Source: a phage
DNA: 64,000 nucleotides
Sequence record: NC_135731.1
Strand: one strand, 5' to 3'
The notes under the pieces were generated by a model. It saw only the letters and a list, made by a program, of their open reading frames with translations. It made no database searches and had not been told where the DNA came from. The position numbers and the translations under genes are program-made. This document shows positions 27,911-60,317 of the stretch, one piece after another (position 1 is the stretch's first letter; the number at the start of each line of letters is the position of its first letter).

Positions 27911-29656
27911 TTAACGTTGTGCAATTACTACGTCTACGATATCACCAACACCACAATACGTTAATTGCAGCAAGGTAACACTGTTAGCCTTGTTGTTAAT
28001 AACAGGTGTTGCCGACAGGATAGCATACTTATCGTGCAAAGTCACGTTGTGACCTACAGCATCCTGAATTACATAGATAACCGCAGTGAATGGATAAGGT
28101 TTATCTTCCGCTGATGTCCCAGGCCACTGTCCTATTGTAAAATCCCCTTTCGCGTGGACAACATACATACTGGCCTGCCCGTTAGGTGTCCATGTCCCCC
28201 CGGATGCGTCAACCTCCTCTAGATCAAAATCTACCTTCCCTGCGTGGAAAGTAGGGGCAGTAATGGTTTTACCAGCCTCAATTTCTTGAGAGGTGGTTAT
28301 CTTACCGCTGGAGTTAATGCCATTACAAACAAAGTTGACATTGGAGAAGTCTGGCAGCCACCCGGTCACTGTGCCGGATATTTCAAGGTTGTGAAGGTAG
28401 GTGGTGCCCGTACCTGCTGCGTTTAAACTAACATCCCCATTTACCTGCAAGTTTCTGGTAACGTTGCAGTTTTCAGAGTTTGCAGTTGTTGCAGTTAAAG
28501 TGGTGGTTGTCAGCTCGGTAATTACACCTTTGTTGGCTGTAAGCCCTTCTCCTTCAAAAGTTGCACGCTCATTGACCCTTAGAGTATTCAGAGCTATGTT
28601 TTGGATAGAGGCCGTACCTCGAATAACTACAGACCCGCCAACCTCCAAATCACCATTTATTAATGCGTCACCCGTGCTTTCAATATAGCTAGGGTAGATC
28701 ATGGTGCCATCGACAGAGTAGGTTATCCCTGTAACGGTACCTGTCACCTCAAGGTTCTTAACCCTGGTGGTCCCATCGACCTGCAATGTCGGTTCGGTTG
28801 CTGCCTTCATGGCATTACCACGAATGTACACGTAGTCAAAAAAGTTATTACCTAGACCGTCAAAATGCACATCGTTGTTATTAGCCACTGGTTTCCCAGA
28901 AGTTATAGTGTCGGCTATAACTCTGTGGGTGGATACTTCATGAGGTTGCAGCTCTGTGCTTCTCCAGTCTGCATGCTTAGGATCGCTCCACGCAAAAGTT
29001 AGTGTAGAAGTATTTGCAGTAAGGATTAGGTTCCTGAAGCGTGCAGTAGAATCCGCTCCATTAACAGGCCCGTGTATGGTAAGGGTGCCACCAACTATGG
29101 TGTTAGCCAGTTCTGTAAGACCTTTTACTACCAAAGACCCTACAGTTACTTTCATCCCCTCCATGGCTTTGAATATACTATCCACATAGTCAACAACAAA
29201 CTCTGTGTTTGCTATAGACTCGGACTTATCGTCCATTGGAGGTGTAGGTGCTCTCGGGTCACCTTCGAACCTTGGACTGTTAAGTTTTGCGTAGTATTTT
29301 GCCATTACTGCAGAATCGGTATATAATCTCCAGTTTGGAGATTGTGAAGGATCTGCTGGCATTCTAACCGGGTTAGATTTTGATGCTGCTGGGGCATACC
29401 ACCACTGAGTGCCTGTATCCCCTTTAAACTCATACAACTGGTTAAAAACTGTTGTGGATGCACCATACGCCCAAGGGATTGGTGGCGTTTTAAAATAAAG
29501 GGTGTCAAGCATGGCTTTTCGTACCGTAGGGATGGTGGTCCCATCCTCTACGACAACTTCATCCACAGCGTTACCGTTGACAATCAAGTGCAAACGTTCA
29601 GAATCAACAATTACTTGATCTACCGCCTGCTCGAAGCTTGTCATGTCTTGCGCCAT
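27911..29656 (-). CDS. putative tail fibre or spike protein (581 aa)
   Basis: Ser/Thr/Gly/Asn-rich repetitive sequence typical of beta-structured fibre proteins; lies in the fibre cluster. Confidence 0.4.
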   Translation of the reverse strand: MAQDMTSFEQAVDQVIVDSERLHLIVNGNAVDEVVVEDGTTIPTVRKAMLDTLYFKTPPIPWAYGASTTVFNQLYEFKGDTGTQWWYAPAASKSNPVRMPADPSQSPNWRLYTDSAVMAKYYAKLNSPRFEGDPRAPTPPMDDKSESIANTEFVVDYVDSIFKAMEGMKVTVGSLVVKGLTELANTIVGGTLTIHGPVNGADSTARFRNLILTANTSTLTFAWSDPKHADWRSTELQPHEVSTHRVIADTITSGKPVANNNDVHFDGLGNNFFDYVYIRGNAMKAATEPTLQVDGTTRVKNLEVTGTVTGITYSVDGTMIYPSYIESTGDALINGDLEVGGSVVIRGTASIQNIALNTLRVNERATFEGEGLTANKGVITELTTTTLTATTANSENCNVTRNLQVNGDVSLNAAGTGTTYLHNLEISGTVTGWLPDFSNVNFVCNGINSSGKITTSQEIEAGKTITAPTFHAGKVDFDLEEVDASGGTWTPNGQASMYVVHAKGDFTIGQWPGTSAEDKPYPFTAVIYVIQDAVGHNVTLHDKYAILSATPVINNKANSVTLLQLTYCGVGDIVDVVIAQR

Positions 29657-29665
29657 GATTTCTCC

Positions 29666-29932
29666 TTAAGCTTTTTGCTCTTCGTTTTTAACGTGGTCAG
29701 GGTGCTGGCAACCCCACCGGAGCGAGATGAATTTGCTAATAAGCTGGGGGCAGGCTACTGAAGGTGCATATATCCACGCATACCATTCAGGAAGCGTATC
29801 ATTGTACCCCATATGAATAAACACCCCAGTCATCACCGCCATGCCTATGTTAGACCATAGCTTAGATTGGGACACTTTCGTAGGGTCATCAGATGCCGCA
29901 ACCAGTCCCCATAAAAACTGAGTTAGTTTCAT
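29666..29932 (-). CDS. small membrane protein (88 aa)
   Basis: Hydrophobic segment NIGMAVMTGVFIHMGY; holin-like size but no lysis partner nearby, so not called a holin. Confidence 0.35.
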   Translation of the reverse strand: MKLTQFLWGLVAASDDPTKVSQSKLWSNIGMAVMTGVFIHMGYNDTLPEWYAWIYAPSVACPQLISKFISLRWGCQHPDHVKNEEQKA

Positions 29933-29943
29933 TTACCCTCTTT

Positions 29944-30990
29944 TTAAGCATAAGATATAGTGATCCATTGACCATTTACAAGTTTTTGGATAGCACCTGT
30001 CCAGTAATCACCTTGATAAGGGTGTTTATAAGCGTAGTTACCAGAGCACATCACATGTCCAGGGTAGACTCTTGACTCTCTGTAGGTGGTTTTGAAACGG
30101 TTTGCTATCCTTACATCATCAACCCCTCTGCTGGGCATAGGGATGGTAAGGTTACCACTACTGTCTGCGCCGTTACCATTTACCCTACGGACCACGTTTC
30201 TTCCACCGACTGTTGCATATTGGCCCCTAACGGTTTCATCGTTACAATCAACTCTTCCACCTATTTGAGCGCTTCCGCAGGATTGTTGTCCATTAACAGT
30301 GGCTCTTGGTATCGTGACCGCATTGGCATTTGCAGAGGAACTTTTTGCATCGTTGCATTCAAGATTTCCTTGGATAGCCAGTCTTGCACGGTTGGCAGTT
30401 ATAGCATTGAGCTTCATAGCTGAAAACACAGGCTGCCCACCAGAAGGTTGAAATCTCCAACGGAACCCATCTATTTGGTGAGAAGGATCATCAAGGTCTG
30501 TGCCGTCAGCACCACCGATGTTGTCCATAATCCAGAAATCCATCGTCGTCTTGTCTGGAGTTATGGTGGTATATATTGCCGCACTGTCTGTTGACGCAGA
30601 TGCAAACTCGATTCTTTGAAGACCTAAAGTTTGAGTCTGAGTCATTATGTCTCCAGACTTGTCAACATATAGATCGTCCATTTCTTCAGGTGAGTATACA
30701 TTGAGAACTTGACGTGCAGCAGCTTTGTCTGGAACGTCTGCTAGATTATTAGTGACCCTTAAGAATCTATTATCCCATCCTGGGACAACATCTTCTGTTA
30801 AATGCTTCAACCACGCAGAAAGCATGTGAAGTTCAAAGTTAACAACTTCACATGCCATTCTTTGTGTCATATCCCAACCTTTCAATCTCTCTTCTTTTTT
30901 TGGTTGAGATTTATTCAACTCTCCCGTATTTTCAAGCACAACATCCTGATTGGCCCAAATATCAAGAGGGATAACTGGTTTAGTCATCAC
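29944..30990 (-). CDS. tail fibre protein, paralog B (348 aa)
   Basis: Homologous along its length to the 32002-33042 product; shared termini MxKPxxPLxIWA and LQKLVNGQWIT(I/V)xYA with a divergent central region. Confidence 0.6.
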   Translation of the reverse strand: MMTKPVIPLDIWANQDVVLENTGELNKSQPKKEERLKGWDMTQRMACEVVNFELHMLSAWLKHLTEDVVPGWDNRFLRVTNNLADVPDKAAARQVLNVYSPEEMDDLYVDKSGDIMTQTQTLGLQRIEFASASTDSAAIYTTITPDKTTMDFWIMDNIGGADGTDLDDPSHQIDGFRWRFQPSGGQPVFSAMKLNAITANRARLAIQGNLECNDAKSSSANANAVTIPRATVNGQQSCGSAQIGGRVDCNDETVRGQYATVGGRNVVRRVNGNGADSSGNLTIPMPSRGVDDVRIANRFKTTYRESRVYPGHVMCSGNYAYKHPYQGDYWTGAIQKLVNGQWITISYA

Positions 30991-31017
30991 GTTCTCCTGA
31001 GAAAATTCCTTAGGACT

Positions 31018-31046
31018 ATTTTAACACTTTAGAGAACAAAATGCAA
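31018..31046 (-). promoter_or_regulatory. putative promoter with extended -10 (TGTTAAAAT) upstream of fibre paralog B
   Basis: Minus-sense TTGCAT-17 nt-TGT-TAAAAT about 28 nt upstream of the ATG at 30990; the -35 overlaps the T-tract of the preceding terminator. Confidence 0.4.
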
Positions 31047-31066
31047 GAACGGAGTCCTTTCCGTTC
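31030..31066 (-). terminator. rho-independent terminator after the 104-aa gene
   Basis: Minus-sense GAACGG-AAAGGACT-CCGTTC hairpin followed by TTGCATTTTGTTCTCT. Confidence 0.5.
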
Positions 31067-31076
31067 TGACCTTTGT

Positions 31077-31391
31077 TTACCTTTTACTATGCTCTACGAG
31101 CATGTGCAAAATCTTTTGTACATCAGCTCGGATGCCGGAGACATCTGTCCTGACATCCTGCTTAAGGTCGTTAATATCGGCCTCTAGCTTGCTTAACCGA
31201 GTCTCGATAACGGAATCAAGTCTATCTTTTGTAACCATACTGTTTTTCACTAAGATGAGGTCTTTCTCCAGCTCATCCAACCTCTTGGAAATGCCTTTCC
31301 ATTTGGTGTGCCACTGGTTGAAAGCCCATACACAGATCGGGACAACGGTACCCATGCAGATACCGTACAATGCCGCCAAATCCAACTCCAC
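31077..31391 (-). CDS. membrane-anchored coiled-coil protein (104 aa)
   Basis: N-terminal hydrophobic helix LYGICMGTVVPICVWAF followed by heptad-like charged repeats (LDELEKDLILVK ... LSKLEADINDLKQDV); topology resembles an i-spanin but no embedded lipoprotein partner was identified. Confidence 0.4.
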   Translation of the reverse strand: MELDLAALYGICMGTVVPICVWAFNQWHTKWKGISKRLDELEKDLILVKNSMVTKDRLDSVIETRLSKLEADINDLKQDVRTDVSGIRADVQKILHMLVEHSKR

Positions 31392-31402
31392 AACACCTCC
31401 TC

Positions 31403-31987
31403 TTAGAGGGTAGGTCGCTCCGGGAAGAAAATGTCAGGGGCTTTAGATGTATCTATTTCAAGAAGTTTTACCCTGTACATTTTCAAATCTCTGATGTTAC
31501 GTTTCTGGTCATCAGTAAGATCATATTCAAGGTCAATCATGTCTTGATAGGCACCAATTCTAGCAGTAGCCCAAGCAAGTTCTGTCTCTATGACACCCTC
31601 TGCCTGTTGAACAAAGAATTCATTATCTGTGACAAATTCATCACCAACTAAACGCAAAGCGTCGTGGTGAAGCATAATGTTTTCTGGTACCTCTTCTTTT
31701 TTGGCGATAACCACACGAAGACCTGGAGCAGGCCATAAGGCATCAGGTTCTTCTGTAGATGTCTTAAGAATTCCCTTCTCGTCAACAAGTAGGAAGACAC
31801 AACCCGGATTTTCTTGTCGTAATGTTCGTGACTGCACATACCAATCGCCATCATCATTACGTAAAAAATACCCAGTGTATGCGGTGTAATCCTCAACCTC
31901 TTGAGGGGTCAGCTCTTTGGTTTCCTTGTTGGCGTGGTATTCGCCAGATCCCGGTTGGTAAAGTTTAAACTCTTGAAGTATTTTCAT
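31403..31987 (-). CDS. tail fibre assembly protein (Tfa family)
   Basis: C-terminal KMYRVKLLEIDTSKAPDIFFPERP matches the recalled lambda Tfa C-terminus ([24 protein letters not shown]); lies immediately downstream of a fibre gene, as for lambda stf-tfa. Confidence 0.75.
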   Translation of the reverse strand: MKILQEFKLYQPGSGEYHANKETKELTPQEVEDYTAYTGYFLRNDDGDWYVQSRTLRQENPGCVFLLVDEKGILKTSTEEPDALWPAPGLRVVIAKKEEVPENIMLHHDALRLVGDEFVTDNEFFVQQAEGVIETELAWATARIGAYQDMIDLEYDLTDDQKRNIRDLKMYRVKLLEIDTSKAPDIFFPERPTL

Positions 31988-32001
31988 GTTAGTCCTCCGA
32001 T

Positions 32002-33042
32002 CTATGCATAATTAACAGTGATCCATTGACCATTTACAAGTTTTTGTAAAGGTCCTGCCCAGTAGGTTGAACCACGCATCTCTTTTTTGTCACCGAAATG
32101 CCAGCCTGTGACAACGTAGCCGTTGCGAATTGGAGATTCAGAAACGCCGTCAACAAGTCTTGCACCGATTCTGATGTCTTGCACACCTGTCTGCGGGATA
32201 GTGATCGTTACATCACCGTTACCGTTAGCCGTCACTCCGTTCACAGAGCGAACCACATTTCTATTACCGACAACACAGTGCTGGCTTCTTACAACCATAC
32301 TGTCACAACTTGCACCACCATTAACATACACTGACCCAGCCGTCAACTGACTAGCCACATTACAGTTGGTGAATGTTGCTGTATTGCTGATAGTAAGGTT
32401 ATTGCACCTCATGTTATCGACAACTTCAACATTGCCTACCACTTTCAACAGCGCACGATTAGCCGTGATCGCGTTAAGGTACATCAAAGTGAACTCTGGA
32501 TTAATATCCGGCTGAGTTGGCTGGAATCTCCAACGAAACGCATCTACTGTAGATGTACCACCATCATCAAACGACCCGGTATTATCACTTAACCCAAAGT
32601 CGAGAGTTGTCTTATCTGGGCCAATAGTTGTCTCTATCCAAGCCTTATCTGTCTCGGCAGCTTTAAAGTTGATACGTTGCAACCCCAAGGGGCCTGTCAT
32701 TGTATCACCTGTAACTTTTACATACCTGGCGTCTGCCTCTTCCTTAGTGATAATCCCAAGGTTTCTACGGGCAACAGGGATGTTCAAAAGATCGCTCAAG
32801 TTATTATCACGTACCAGATAACGACCTTCTTGAGCGGGGATCTGCTCGTCAGCAATGTATTTTGCCCAAGTCCCGAGCATATTGAAAATATAGTTAAGTT
32901 CTTCACAGGATGGCTTTTGACCAAGATCCCAACCTTTTCTCCACAAATCATCAATCGGGCGTAGCCTGTTCTGTCTGTGGGTGTTAGGCAGAACCTGATC
33001 CTCCTCTGCCCAAATCTCTAATGGAAAACTAGGTTTTGACAT
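32002..33042 (-). CDS. tail fibre protein, paralog A (346 aa)
   Basis: Fibre-type motif VTGDTMTGPLGLQRINF; conserved termini shared with paralog B; followed by the Tfa gene. Confidence 0.65.
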   Translation of the reverse strand: MSKPSFPLEIWAEEDQVLPNTHRQNRLRPIDDLWRKGWDLGQKPSCEELNYIFNMLGTWAKYIADEQIPAQEGRYLVRDNNLSDLLNIPVARRNLGIITKEEADARYVKVTGDTMTGPLGLQRINFKAAETDKAWIETTIGPDKTTLDFGLSDNTGSFDDGGTSTVDAFRWRFQPTQPDINPEFTLMYLNAITANRALLKVVGNVEVVDNMRCNNLTISNTATFTNCNVASQLTAGSVYVNGGASCDSMVVRSQHCVVGNRNVVRSVNGVTANGNGDVTITIPQTGVQDIRIGARLVDGVSESPIRNGYVVTGWHFGDKKEMRGSTYWAGPLQKLVNGQWITVNYA

Positions 33043-33054
33043 TTTATCTCCTGA

Positions 33055-35127
33055 TTATGAGAAGTCTGGCGGGACAACATCTTCTACATACCCTTTCAGA
33101 GCAACCTGCCCCATATGAAGCACGGTAGAATCTCTGGCGGTAACAGTGATGCTGTCAGACATTACTTGCGGGTATGCCCACACATACTGTTTTACCTCAG
33201 GGTATCTATACTCTATGGTTGCCATGTTTCCGCAGATACATCTCCATAAAAATTCTTGGTAATTCCTGGTTGGGTCGTAGCCATATACCGGAGCAAGCTC
33301 TTTGCTAGGAACGAACCCTGCAAGGTATTGTATTTCAGACGGTTGCCAACCTAACTTAACGATAGGTATGTTTACAGACTCTTTTGCCTTTTCAATACCT
33401 CCCTGCATCACCCAATCGTAGCACTCGGTGCAGAAGAAATCAAGAGCACCTGCTTCCTTTTTATATTGGTCAGCAAGGTTCAGCTTTTGCGTAAGCTCGG
33501 TTTCCATGATGGTTGGGAAAAACAGCAAAGCTGTCATCTGAGCTGATGCAGCGTGTGCCTTTATTGCCTTTGAAATAGCCGCAATACGAGCGCCAAGCTT
33601 ACCACGACAAAATGCTACATACTTGTCGTAAACACCGCCAGTTTTAGGATCGTCAATAGTCCCAATATCTAATGCATACTCACCTGTCTCATCATAAAAC
33701 GCCTGCTTTGTAGGGTAATCATAAATACAAGGTCTACGAGTATCGGTATTGTACCACCACCACGGTTCACCAACCTGCATAATCACTGGCAGGTTGTTTC
33801 TCATAGCGGCTGATGCAAAATTCTTAAATACTGCAGTAAGGAAATTCATACCCTCTTCAATGGTTGGAGACAGGAGGTAGCTACAGGGTGTATACCCTGT
33901 TTTAGCGTAGTTATCGTTCCAGTCTCTTTGGGTCCATTCCAACGGGCAGGCATCGCTGAAAAGCTCAAAACTTACAGATTGCATAACGTCGAAGTTATGT
34001 CGTTTGGCATTGTACATAAAATCATCATGCCATTTATAAGCTGCAGCGTTTAGCGCCCCTGTTCTGTTTATAGACCATTGGGTTCCTGACCATGTGTAGT
34101 CATAATAATGACTCATACCAACATAATGGTTTATGGTTCCGGTATAGCCCAGACGCTTGATATTGTTCAACACCCTTAAAGGAGATACGTTCCACATATC
34201 GTCATATGCGGTGCAGATCCCAACGTCGTGCTCTTTAACCTGAATATTGTTAAGTTGCATCATTTTCCAACCCGTGTCTGGCTGAAGCAGATCTAGGCGC
34301 AACTCACACTCTACATTTTCCGTTCTCGGGTCTGTGCTATTACTTACCCAGTCTTTAGGCATAAGCGGTATTAAAATCCTTCTCACCTGCCGAGGATCAA
34401 CACCCATCATGTTGTTGTTCTGATCCATCCCGACGCAGTCCTCGAAATCAATATGAATCTCTGCAACATTCTTATCCTCTGAGATGCTGACAGCATATTG
34501 AGCTAAAGGAACATAGATGATTGTGCCATCAACAAGGTCTACAGTCATAATCATCTTTTCAGGAGTGGAGAAGTTGCTGGCATTGGTTATTGACATTCTG
34601 AACCAAAGCTTGGTGTTTCTCATCTCGTAGTGATCATCAAACCCAATACCGAAATGGTCATACTTGTCAACTGTTTCCCAAATGCACCCAGCCATACCTC
34701 CATATGTTCTTGACACTAAACGGTTAATACAACAGTTGTTATCTGCAACAATACAGGTACTTTCAGTCTGCTGAGTAGTTGTAACCCAATATCTTGGGTG
34801 AAACATTCTCTCCTCAACAGTATCCCAAGATATCCTGTCAAGATTCTCATCTGAAACTATTGTACATTTCGACCTTTGTGTTCCAATCATCACCCCTTGA
34901 GATTTTGATGAAAACTCCATAAAGAAGCTTCTTGGCAACCTGTTGGGTAATTTGTCAACAATTTCTACGGGGATCTCAATACTGGTTGCCCCAATTGGGA
35001 TAGTTACATCGCCCTCAACATGATTATAATCCCTACCAGGAACGGCAGTATCCTGAACTGTGCGGTAATGAAACTGTGCAGCCATTGTAGAGTAATCACG
35101 GTAAGGTTTAAAAACAGCTGTTGCCAT
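33055..35127 (-). CDS. tail-associated protein (690 aa), possibly carbohydrate-active
   Basis: Large ORF in the fibre cluster; N-terminal segment (GRDYNHVEGDVTIPIGATSIEIPVEIVDK) resembles Calx-beta-like modules; no catalytic motif confirmed. Confidence 0.35.
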   Translation of the reverse strand: MATAVFKPYRDYSTMAAQFHYRTVQDTAVPGRDYNHVEGDVTIPIGATSIEIPVEIVDKLPNRLPRSFFMEFSSKSQGVMIGTQRSKCTIVSDENLDRISWDTVEERMFHPRYWVTTTQQTESTCIVADNNCCINRLVSRTYGGMAGCIWETVDKYDHFGIGFDDHYEMRNTKLWFRMSITNASNFSTPEKMIMTVDLVDGTIIYVPLAQYAVSISEDKNVAEIHIDFEDCVGMDQNNNMMGVDPRQVRRILIPLMPKDWVSNSTDPRTENVECELRLDLLQPDTGWKMMQLNNIQVKEHDVGICTAYDDMWNVSPLRVLNNIKRLGYTGTINHYVGMSHYYDYTWSGTQWSINRTGALNAAAYKWHDDFMYNAKRHNFDVMQSVSFELFSDACPLEWTQRDWNDNYAKTGYTPCSYLLSPTIEEGMNFLTAVFKNFASAAMRNNLPVIMQVGEPWWWYNTDTRRPCIYDYPTKQAFYDETGEYALDIGTIDDPKTGGVYDKYVAFCRGKLGARIAAISKAIKAHAASAQMTALLFFPTIMETELTQKLNLADQYKKEAGALDFFCTECYDWVMQGGIEKAKESVNIPIVKLGWQPSEIQYLAGFVPSKELAPVYGYDPTRNYQEFLWRCICGNMATIEYRYPEVKQYVWAYPQVMSDSITVTARDSTVLHMGQVALKGYVEDVVPPDFS

Positions 35128-37315: not shown

Positions 37316-37348
37316 GTCACTCCTCCGGTATGAAAATCTCTACAAGGT

Positions 37349-37377
37349 ATTTTACCAAATTTTGTAACAATAGTCAA
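37349..37377 (-). promoter_or_regulatory. sigma70-type promoter with extended -10 (TTGACT-17 nt-TGG-TAAAAT)
   Basis: Minus-sense -35 TTGACT (plus 37372-37377) and -10 TAAAAT (plus 37349-37354) preceded by TGG; about 33 nt upstream of the GTG start at 37315. Confidence 0.5.
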
Positions 37378-42589: not shown

Positions 42590-42620
42590 TGTGCCTCCAG
42601 GTTAAACAATCATGATAGTT

Positions 42621-42649
42621 ATTTTACCAGATTTTAAGTTAATACGCAA
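42621..42649 (-). promoter_or_regulatory. putative promoter with extended -10 (TTGCGT-17 nt-TGG-TAAAAT)
   Basis: Minus-sense -10 TAAAAT (plus 42621-42626) preceded by TGG, about 31 nt upstream of the ATG at 42589; weak -35. Confidence 0.45.
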
Positions 42650-56751: not shown

Positions 56752-56789
56752 TGCACCATATTTGTGTATTTTACCATGATTATGGTGCA
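56752..56789 (-). promoter_or_regulatory. inverted repeat (TGCACCATA ... TATGGTGCA) overlapping the chaperone/tape measure promoter; candidate operator
   Basis: Perfect 9-bp arms at 56752-56760 and 56781-56789 separated by 20 bp; one arm lies in the promoter spacer, the other just downstream of the -10. Confidence 0.4.
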
Positions 56790-60270: not shown

Positions 60271-60288
60271 TATATCCCTCACTAATGT

Positions 60289-60317
60289 ATTTTACCACAA
60301 AGATACATCAAAAGCAA
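60289..60317 (-). promoter_or_regulatory. putative promoter with extended -10 (TTGCTT-17 nt-TGG-TAAAAT)
   Basis: Minus-sense TGG then TAAAAT (plus 60289-60294) with a weak -35; same extended -10 as at 37349, 42621 and 56768. Confidence 0.45.

Follow-up and report, generated by a model that had tools for sequence, protein, structure and literature searches.

Paralogous short tail fibre genes sharing one Tfa chaperone in an rV5-like phage: indications of an ancestral duplication, of 3' gene conversion and of a possibly bivalent virion

In a 64,000-nucleotide (nt) stretch of phage DNA (sequence record NC_135731.1, hereafter the window), we analyzed a minus-strand locus in which two paralogous genes for predicted short tail fibre proteins, A and B, flank a single gene for a tail fibre assembly chaperone (Tfa). 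Comparison of this locus with its relatives indicates that B stems from a single duplication in the common ancestor of the rV5-like phages, and that gene conversion has kept the 3' ends of the two genes alike. On balance, we favour the view that A and B are two short tail fibres that form separate homotrimers with the help of the single Tfa, that both are attached to the baseplate and recognise the core of the lipopolysaccharide (LPS), and that the virion would be constitutively bivalent.

At the DNA level, the region 29600-33100 of the window is 100% identical to that of phiWec196, an Escherichia phage, and over 100 rV5-like phages of the genus Vequintavirus match it with 98-99% identity. The source phage is, by these matches, an rV5-like myophage of that genus. 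The rV5 genes gp28-gp36 correspond to the locus gene by gene, and in the BASEL phage DrSchubert the orthologs of A and B are annotated as 'short tail fiber protein', with 'tail fiber chaperone' as the label of the intervening gene. The features of the locus are as follows (lengths in amino acids, aa).

32002..33042, minus strand: short tail fibre paralogue A, 346 aa; ortholog of rV5 gp33 (99.7% identical); phrog_4465.
31403..31987, minus strand: tail fibre assembly chaperone (Tfa), 194 aa; ortholog of rV5 gp32; Caudo_TAP, phrog_136.
31077..31391, minus strand: 104-aa protein with a transmembrane (TM) segment and a coiled-coil-like remainder; ortholog of rV5 gp31; phrog_5345 (unknown function).
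31046..31067, minus strand: terminator-like hairpin between the 104-aa gene and B, from a terminator scan; followed by the invariant TTGCATTTT.
31017..31026, minus strand: late-promoter-like motif TGTTAAAATA, published in rV5 as 'P030'; 30 bases lie between the motif and the ATG of B.
29944..30987, minus strand: short tail fibre paralogue B, 347 aa with a start at ATG 30987; ortholog of rV5 gp30 (98.8% identical); phrog_4465.
32003..32064, minus strand: gene-conversion tract at the 3' end of A, partner of 29945..30006.
29945..30006, minus strand: gene-conversion tract at the 3' end of B, 62 nt, 84% DNA identity to the 3' end of A.
29666..29932, minus strand: 88-aa small protein; ortholog of rV5 gp29; phrog_1322 (E=2.7e-32).

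The first-pass annotation of this DNA had described A and B as homologous along their whole length and as flanking a Tfa-family chaperone, and both descriptions hold. The two proteins align full-length in BLASTP (43% identity, E=2e-94) and each of them matches phrog_4465 'tail fiber protein' over its whole length, while residues 121-192 of the protein encoded between them match the Pfam family Caudo_TAP (PF02413; E=7.5e-12, 46 bits vs a cut-off of 22.1) and the whole protein matches phrog_136 (E=6e-36). This is the sole chaperone gene in the locus, one for two fibres.

The distribution of similarity along the alignment differs from the conserved termini and divergent centres that had been proposed. 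Identity amounts to 43% in columns 1-60, 33% in columns 61-120, 54% in columns 121-215, 38% in columns 216-300, 29% in columns 301-342 and 80% in the last 15. The extreme C-terminal strand is indeed the most conserved part, but the N-terminus is average and the best-conserved long stretch is central (columns 121-215), so that on proper alignment the centre is conserved in part. The two proteins diverge chiefly in a linker (columns 51-90) and the distal third. Even the last 15 residues, previously given as shared, are identical at 12 of 15 positions, and the first of them differs (L vs I). A terminal motif P[LI]QK.[VI]NG.W.T is common to phiTE, Mu, the single-copy relatives, A and B; the conservation of the last 15 residues is therefore primarily a family signature. 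The start of B also needed revision: an AGGAG box lies 6 nt upstream of ATG 30987 and only 3 nt upstream of GTG 30990, the start first assigned (348 aa), and this spacing makes ATG 30987 the more likely translation start. The rV5 gp30 protein is likewise annotated with 347 aa.

Searches against the PDB (phmmer) connect the N-termini of both paralogues with a fibre of known structure. Residues 1-108 of A match the short tail fibre of phage phiTE (PDB 9cuy) with E=1.4e-19, and residues 2-84 of B match it with E=1.1e-9. A family profile built from 12 sequences recovers 9cuy at the N-terminus (1.6e-27) and, at the C-terminus, the Mu tail fibre protein S (5yvq, 5.6e-10) and the Mu S/S' chimera 8ju3. 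Residues 286-343 of A match residues 440-501 of Mu protein S (5yvq_A), and a Mu-type tip is predicted for B from the family profile and from its homology to A. The family-invariant N-terminal residues (P4, P7, W11, A12, N25, P29, G37-W38-D39, E47, N50, W59) are all present in B. Over the first 110 residues, A and B are 38% identical. AlphaFold2 monomer models of B and A, made from 9-sequence alignments, had mean confidence (pLDDT) values of 33 and 39 and were too poor for a fold search.

As a separate observation on the tip of A (residues 287-344, window 32011-32184), this segment is 57-59% identical to the C-termini of tail fibres in ∼52-kb phages of Salmonella and E. coli (BP63, JEP7, UPF_BP2, SE13 and others), far above its 33% identity to the tip of B. 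The closer match to the ∼52-kb phages suggests that the tip module of A may have been exchanged horizontally between phage families.

The origin of B was reconstructed from the gene order in single-copy relatives (Avunavirus Av-05, Seunavirus R7 and GAP31, Certrevirus phiTE), in which the short tail fibre gene is followed by genes for Tfa, a ∼104-aa protein, a ∼157-aa multi-pass membrane protein, a ∼88-aa protein and the next fibre. In Vequintavirus, the slot of the 157-aa gene is taken by B. Relocation of this membrane-protein gene within the window was ruled out, since a tblastn search for its homologue there returned merely a 39-aa hit (E=0.11). A neighbour-joining tree resolves A and B as sister clades (bootstrap 1.0) and places the single-copy orthologs outside them, which points to one duplication in the ancestor of the rV5-like phages, with B replacing the 157-aa gene. 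An import of B from a prophage or from another phage family is unsupported: besides its position in the tree as sister to A, B used as a query against 5.8 billion proteins retrieved 8 clusters only, all from this group. The position of the two genes suggests which of them occupies the original place. The upstream gene order is a 496-aa Baseplate_J-like protein, a 228-aa protein, a 690-aa fibre, A and Tfa; A thus comes right after the baseplate genes and the gene for the 690-aa fibre, with Tfa next, and B lies two genes beyond Tfa without a Tfa of its own. Judged by this arrangement, the position of A is ancestral and that of B belongs to a lineage-specific duplicate.

B has, as the first-pass annotation stated, a promoter-like element of its own (TGTTAAAATA at 31017-31026 on the minus strand). 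The pattern TGKTAAAATA has five matches in the window, all on the minus (coding) strand (31017-31026, 37348-37357, 42620-42629, 56767-56776 and 60288-60297), against 0.42 expected by chance, and it agrees with the MEME motif TggTAaAAtA of rV5. The TGTTAAAATA region is identical to the rV5 late promoter 'P030' (Table S4 of PMC3606486), and TG(T/C)TAAAATA is invariant ahead of B in five lineages. The hairpin at 31046-31067 is also kept across lineages, with four of its seven pairs maintaining pairing despite changes on both sides, and is followed by the invariant TTGCATTTT and then by the motif. The insertion of B either brought or created a regulatory unit consisting of the hairpin and the promoter motif.

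Both genes are strongly conserved among 116 cultured relatives. A is at least 99% identical in 100 records and 95-99% identical in 15; for B the corresponding numbers are 55 and 60, and neither gene falls below 90% in any record. Compared with HMD-6, the counts of amino-acid vs synonymous codon differences are 6/50 in A and 16/54 in B; compared with the metagenomic relative L006, they are 45/165 and 76/156. A and B are thus under purifying selection, judging by their codons, with about twice the rate of change in B. Within each paralogue, conservation is highest in the tip (89% in A and 91% in B between the window and L006, vs 71-80% in the rest of B), whereas the tips of A and B (residues ∼286-331) are 33-38% identical to each other in the lineage of the window. 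This pattern is the opposite of a hypervariable host-range determinant, and the proposal of a variable determinant is therefore not supported. Conserved tips would fit a conserved LPS-core receptor, as argued in the BASEL paper (PMC8594841).

The similarity of A and B at the DNA level is confined to the 62-nt tract at the 3' end and one 28-nt stretch (repeat search, blastn). Where the amino acids are identical, the codons are identical in 31% of cases in the gene body and in 85% within the last 20 codons. All ten codons of QKLVNGQWIT are the same in A and B in the window, rV5 and DrSchubert; L006 and L008 use the same three synonymous alternatives (CTG, GTC, CAG) in both paralogues; L007 has two of these three in A; and HMD-6 has AAC in the 3' ends of both A and B. 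Amino-acid constraint alone was ruled out as a cause of the identity of the 62-nt tract, since the synonymous sites are alike within a genome and unlike between lineages. Codon identity within genomes together with difference between genomes is the pattern of gene conversion, which has homogenised about the last ten codons.

The chaperone offers a probable reason for this concerted evolution. The terminal tripeptides of A and B co-vary: rV5-like genomes have NYA/SYA, and an uncultured sister lineage (the L009-like lineage, described below) has QTL/QTL. The N-terminal, fibre-binding domain of Tfa is 43% identical between the rV5-like and the L009-like lineage, and in general this domain diverges more between lineages than the C-terminal one (72 vs 86%, 43 vs 54%). 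In a published model based on work with Mu, the variable N-terminal domain of Tfa binds the C-terminal region of the fibre and the conserved C-terminal domain drives trimerisation (PMC9608196). On the simplest reading, one chaperone would serve both fibres and jointly constrain their C-termini.

The uncultured sister lineage is represented by five long contigs (L009, L019-L022) with the architecture A, Tfa, 104-aa gene, B; the related B-slot proteins P0003 and P0005 also carry its tip. Identity between A and B in these contigs is 78-87% in the tips (residues ∼286-331) and 87-100% in the C-terminal strands, while the N-termini (37-41%) and the mid-shafts (47-50%) are as distinct as in rV5. The common tip is of the A type, with lineage-specific residues in both copies, and the rV5-type B tip keeps ancestral residues that are seen in Av-05 and absent from A (NRF..., YPGHVM); the tip of A has therefore overwritten that of B in the L009-like lineage. 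Patchy blocks of 90-100% nucleotide identity, which vary between the contigs, indicate that short-tract conversion has occurred there repeatedly.

Published work on related phages places proteins of this kind on the baseplate and connects such phages with the LPS core. In the cryo-electron microscopy (cryo-EM) structure of the Pectobacterium phage phiTE, the short tail fibre trimer is fastened to baseplate wedge protein 1 by a joint made of residues 3-92 (PMC11972413). The one homologue in phi92, gp147 or 'fibre III', is present as six trimers on the wedge that reorient on contraction (PMC13450770). The LL12 protein gp29 has been linked to phi92 gp147, and LL12 requires the outer-core Glc I of LPS (PMC7229145); all tested Vequintavirinae fail on waaC and waaG mutants (PMC8594841). 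We propose that folding of the A and B homotrimers would begin at the C-terminus with the help of the single Tfa, and the fit to one chaperone would account for the way the C-terminal strand and the terminal tripeptide vary together within a genome. Both fibres would sit on the baseplate, with the LPS core as their terminal, irreversible receptor, and the two distinct, highly conserved tips of the rV5-like lineage would recognise two conserved core structures, in a virion that would be bivalent at all times and not switchable. The dual-receptor step, a published hypothesis that we regard as possible, is the weakest in this explanation; both the conservation of the tips and the like tips of the L009-like lineage speak against it.

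Several observations weigh against a virion that displays both fibres with two specificities. B alone has no direct match to Mu protein S in the PDB. B-clade-specific losses of otherwise conserved residues are concentrated in the N-terminal docking domain, with 13 of 21 in the first 70 residues, and hint that B may have a different attachment site. Relatives with one short tail fibre have six docking sites per baseplate, which would have to be split between two paralogues, and in cryo-EM maps of Bas49 and Bas54 at 7-9.5 Å there is one short-tail-fibre-type density in which A and B are inseparable (PMC12143355). The text of the rV5 paper (Kropinski et al. 2013) lists gp30, gp32 and gp33 among the virion proteins detected (PMC3606486). 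However, the deposited DTASelect mass spectrometry (MS) table of that study (Table S5, Additional file 5), with 19 proteins, has no entry of length 346, 347 or 194 and no match for five tryptic peptides of A, B and Tfa and one of the 88-aa protein, the whole table being considered in both cases. Parts 1, 3 and 4 of the four parts of the table contain loci 61, 60, 53, 52, 133, 79, 152, 82, 34, 237, 41, 62, 235, 106, 37, 1, 27 and 228; the nineteenth stands in part 2. Table S3 of the same paper flags 'MS evidence' for gp34 and for neither gp30 nor gp33. The presence of both paralogues in the virion is thus less well documented than the literature implies, although the run recovered few low-copy tail proteins overall. 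Finally, the L009-like lineage keeps the pair without different tips. This argues against differing tips as what universally maintains A and B, and dual receptor specificity is accordingly disfavoured as the general reason for two copies.

Some of these points would be explained if A and B had been kept for different baseplate sites or mechanical roles and not for their tips, A sitting for example on the wedge like phiTE gp236 and phi92 gp147, and B on another site or on another fibre. We consider such positional or structural subfunctionalisation a serious competitor, if clearly less probable than the bivalent virion. The L009-like lineage, with like tips on distinct N-termini and mid-shafts, is what it would predict; the B-clade replacements noted above cluster in the domain that contacts the wedge in phiTE; and the N-terminus of B is conserved within the B clade (57-63% between lineages). 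Against it, B retains every family-invariant N-terminal residue, a single short-tail-fibre-type density is seen by cryo-EM, and the tips differ and are each strongly conserved in all cultured isolates, which is hard to explain if the tip is irrelevant. A more specific version appears to us slightly more doubtful still: two fibre sets that are structurally distinct in docking or geometry and do not represent two specificities, with the one chaperone driving 3' conversion and, in some lineages, overwriting of the tip. If this were true, the single Tfa would couple the evolution of the paralogous fibres, and two positional classes of short fibre would be present on rV5-like baseplates.

The other alternatives fare worse. 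It is improbable that one copy alone is a working virion fibre and the other redundant, decaying or non-structural, even though gp30, gp32 and gp33 were missing from the deposited rV5 table in the searches made and B evolves faster than A. Both open reading frames (ORFs) are intact in 8 of 9 cultured genomes and in 10 of 10 metagenomic contigs examined, synonymous changes far outnumber amino-acid changes in both genes, and the promoter ahead of B is conserved. The exception is V18 (NC_041937.1; L012:2501-2662, corresponding to about window 32965), where a 1-nt deletion changes AACAGGCTA to AACA-GCTA at about codon 26 of gene A, which is annotated there with a 292-aa product truncated at the N-terminus. 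V18 is still a propagated phage. Its deletion may have knocked out A naturally, or it may be a sequencing error; the latter, like the poor recovery of low-copy tail proteins in the MS run, would remove an argument for a single working fibre. Less credible again are heterotrimers of A and B, i.e. one fibre species with mixed tips. The common C-terminal nucleation strand, the one chaperone and the central shaft as the most similar long region would suit them, but the shafts differ by indels of 2, 4 and 2 residues and a 6/4-residue offset in the lineage of the window, the L009-type B has an insertion of 8-9 residues, and with 33-38% identity in the N-terminal and distal parts a regular three-fold β-structure from mixed chains would be unlikely.

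The least plausible alternative is a switch of expression like that of the Mu G or P1 C segment, with one fibre type per particle or lineage. The proteins and the chaperone are homologous to Mu S and U (PMC8594841), a system that is invertible in Mu, and the first-pass annotation had suggested two fibres that widen or switch the host range. The differing tips leave two specificities possible; the switch was not borne out. A and B are complete, full-length genes on the same strand, each with its own start, and no inverted repeats flank them, which rules out an inversion switch: the only inverted repeat, 18 nt at 78% complementarity, flanks no cassette. Together with the late promoter motif of B, the complete co-oriented genes argue for co-expression and not alternation. 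There is one chaperone and not two, and the gene order is the same in every genome examined in detail. Of 116 phage records, 113 have a match at one site that covers at least 80% of the 3.5-kb region. The ORFs and public annotations between 22 and 38 kb comprise only fibre, baseplate and small hypothetical proteins. No invertase was noticed there, and none of the eight locus proteins had a recombinase match in Pfam, but no search aimed at recombinases was made across the window.

The locus itself shows no differences from the known one of rV5, where gp33, gp32, gp31 and gp30 are the same genes in the same order with the same P030 promoter sequence. Kropinski et al. 2013 described the paralogy (42.3% identity) and proposed two LPS chemotypes as possible targets (PMC3606486). 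Maffei et al. 2021 reported that Vequintavirinae sensu stricto have a pair of paralogous short tail fibres together with a chaperone, that these are homologues of Mu GpS/GpU without considerable allelic variation, and that phi92-like phages and Phapecoctavirus are single-copy (PMC8594841). The fibre pair with one chaperone, the Mu ancestry, the two-chemotype idea and the promoter were thus already published in 2013 and 2021. New in the present analysis are the replacement of the 157-aa gene, a date for the duplication, the 3' conversion, the tip homogenisation in an uncultured lineage and the lack of MS support.

Comparison with better-studied fibres outlines what is peculiar to the rV5 type. 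In phiTE gp236 (PDB 9cuy/9mjn) and phi92 gp147 we find a homologous N-terminal wedge-docking domain, the same slot after the wedge genes with Tfa next, and the C-terminal motif PIQKKVNGVWVTI as in the rV5-type fibres; these phages have one fibre copy, and rV5-like phages have two. The phiTE fibre is a 554-aa protein with a long coiled coil and immunoglobulin-like domains, proposed to bind flagella (PMC11972413), whereas the rV5-type fibres of 346-347 aa have no coiled-coil match. Mu GpS/GpU (5yvq) resembles the present system in the C-terminal domain, in the Caudo_TAP chaperone immediately downstream and in the two tips per genome. It differs in that S/U and S'/U' alternate by Gin-mediated inversion with one chaperone per tip, in contrast to complete co-oriented genes with one chaperone here, and the N-terminal two-thirds of the rV5-type fibres are unrelated to Mu S. 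T4 gp12 has the same assumed role, that of a baseplate fibre with irreversible binding to the LPS core. There is just one gp12 in T4, and its chaperone, gp57A, is a different one. HHpred similarity to gp12 (1PDI) was reported in the 2013 paper with probabilities of 98% and 97% (PMC3606486); in our PDB searches no gp12 chain was found at E<=1 with A or B as queries, nor at E<=0.01 with the family profile.

Two small proteins accompany the fibres. The 104-aa protein encoded after Tfa has one hydrophobic N-terminal segment (residues 3-24) and a coiled-coil-like remainder with weak coiled-coil-type matches, in agreement with its first description as a membrane-anchored coiled-coil protein. Its gene is kept after the Tfa gene in Avunavirus, Seunavirus and Certrevirus (Av-05, R7, GAP31 and phiTE; 112 aa in phiTE), and the 88-aa gene is kept downstream of the module in the same phages. 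The 88-aa protein had been called a small membrane protein; PHROGs and RefSeq use this label, but no 19-residue window exceeds 1.6 on the Kyte-Doolittle scale and its membrane nature is uncertain. The tail-fibre module of these three genera holds the trio of a ∼104-aa TM/coiled-coil protein, the ∼157-aa multi-pass membrane protein and a ∼88-aa protein (L002:6638-7701; L014:5728-6805). Membrane proteins inside an operon for virion fibres are odd, and lysis, superinfection exclusion and assembly can be raised as questions about their role.

The module is bordered by two larger fibre genes. Upstream, the 690-aa protein (window 33055-35127, minus strand) contains Calx-beta and, in addition, the N-terminal and TIM-barrel domains of the non-contractile tail sheath protein of the N4 gp65 type (E=4e-80), and its homologues are regarded in the literature as an ECA/NGR-binding deacetylase fibre. 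Av-05 has the 690-aa gene in the equivalent position; in Seunavirus R7 and GAP31 the short tail fibre gene comes immediately after a baseplate gene. Downstream, the 581-aa fibre (window 27911-29656, minus strand) has weak Bactofilin-like Pfam matches, which explain the odd 'polymer-forming cytoskeletal protein' labels in some GenBank records; precomputed Pfam hits of its homologues are Phage_phiTE_241_N and Phage_phiTE_241_C. In addition, 16 to 21 GenBank records named 'Campylobacter phage' (MG0656xx, host Campylobacter jejuni) are 98-99% identical to the locus and are probably mislabelled or contaminant genomes.

The L009-like lineage provides a natural test of whether the duplication concerns receptors at all, and the concerted evolution of the 3' ends is probably due to the service of one chaperone to both fibres. 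Few E. coli phages are isolated as often as the rV5-like ones, which serve in O157 typing, in food biocontrol and in therapy cocktails. The identity of the fibre that binds the terminal LPS-core receptor matters for the prediction of resistance and for the engineering of host range, and the tips of A and B, the candidates for this contact, are conserved and not variable.

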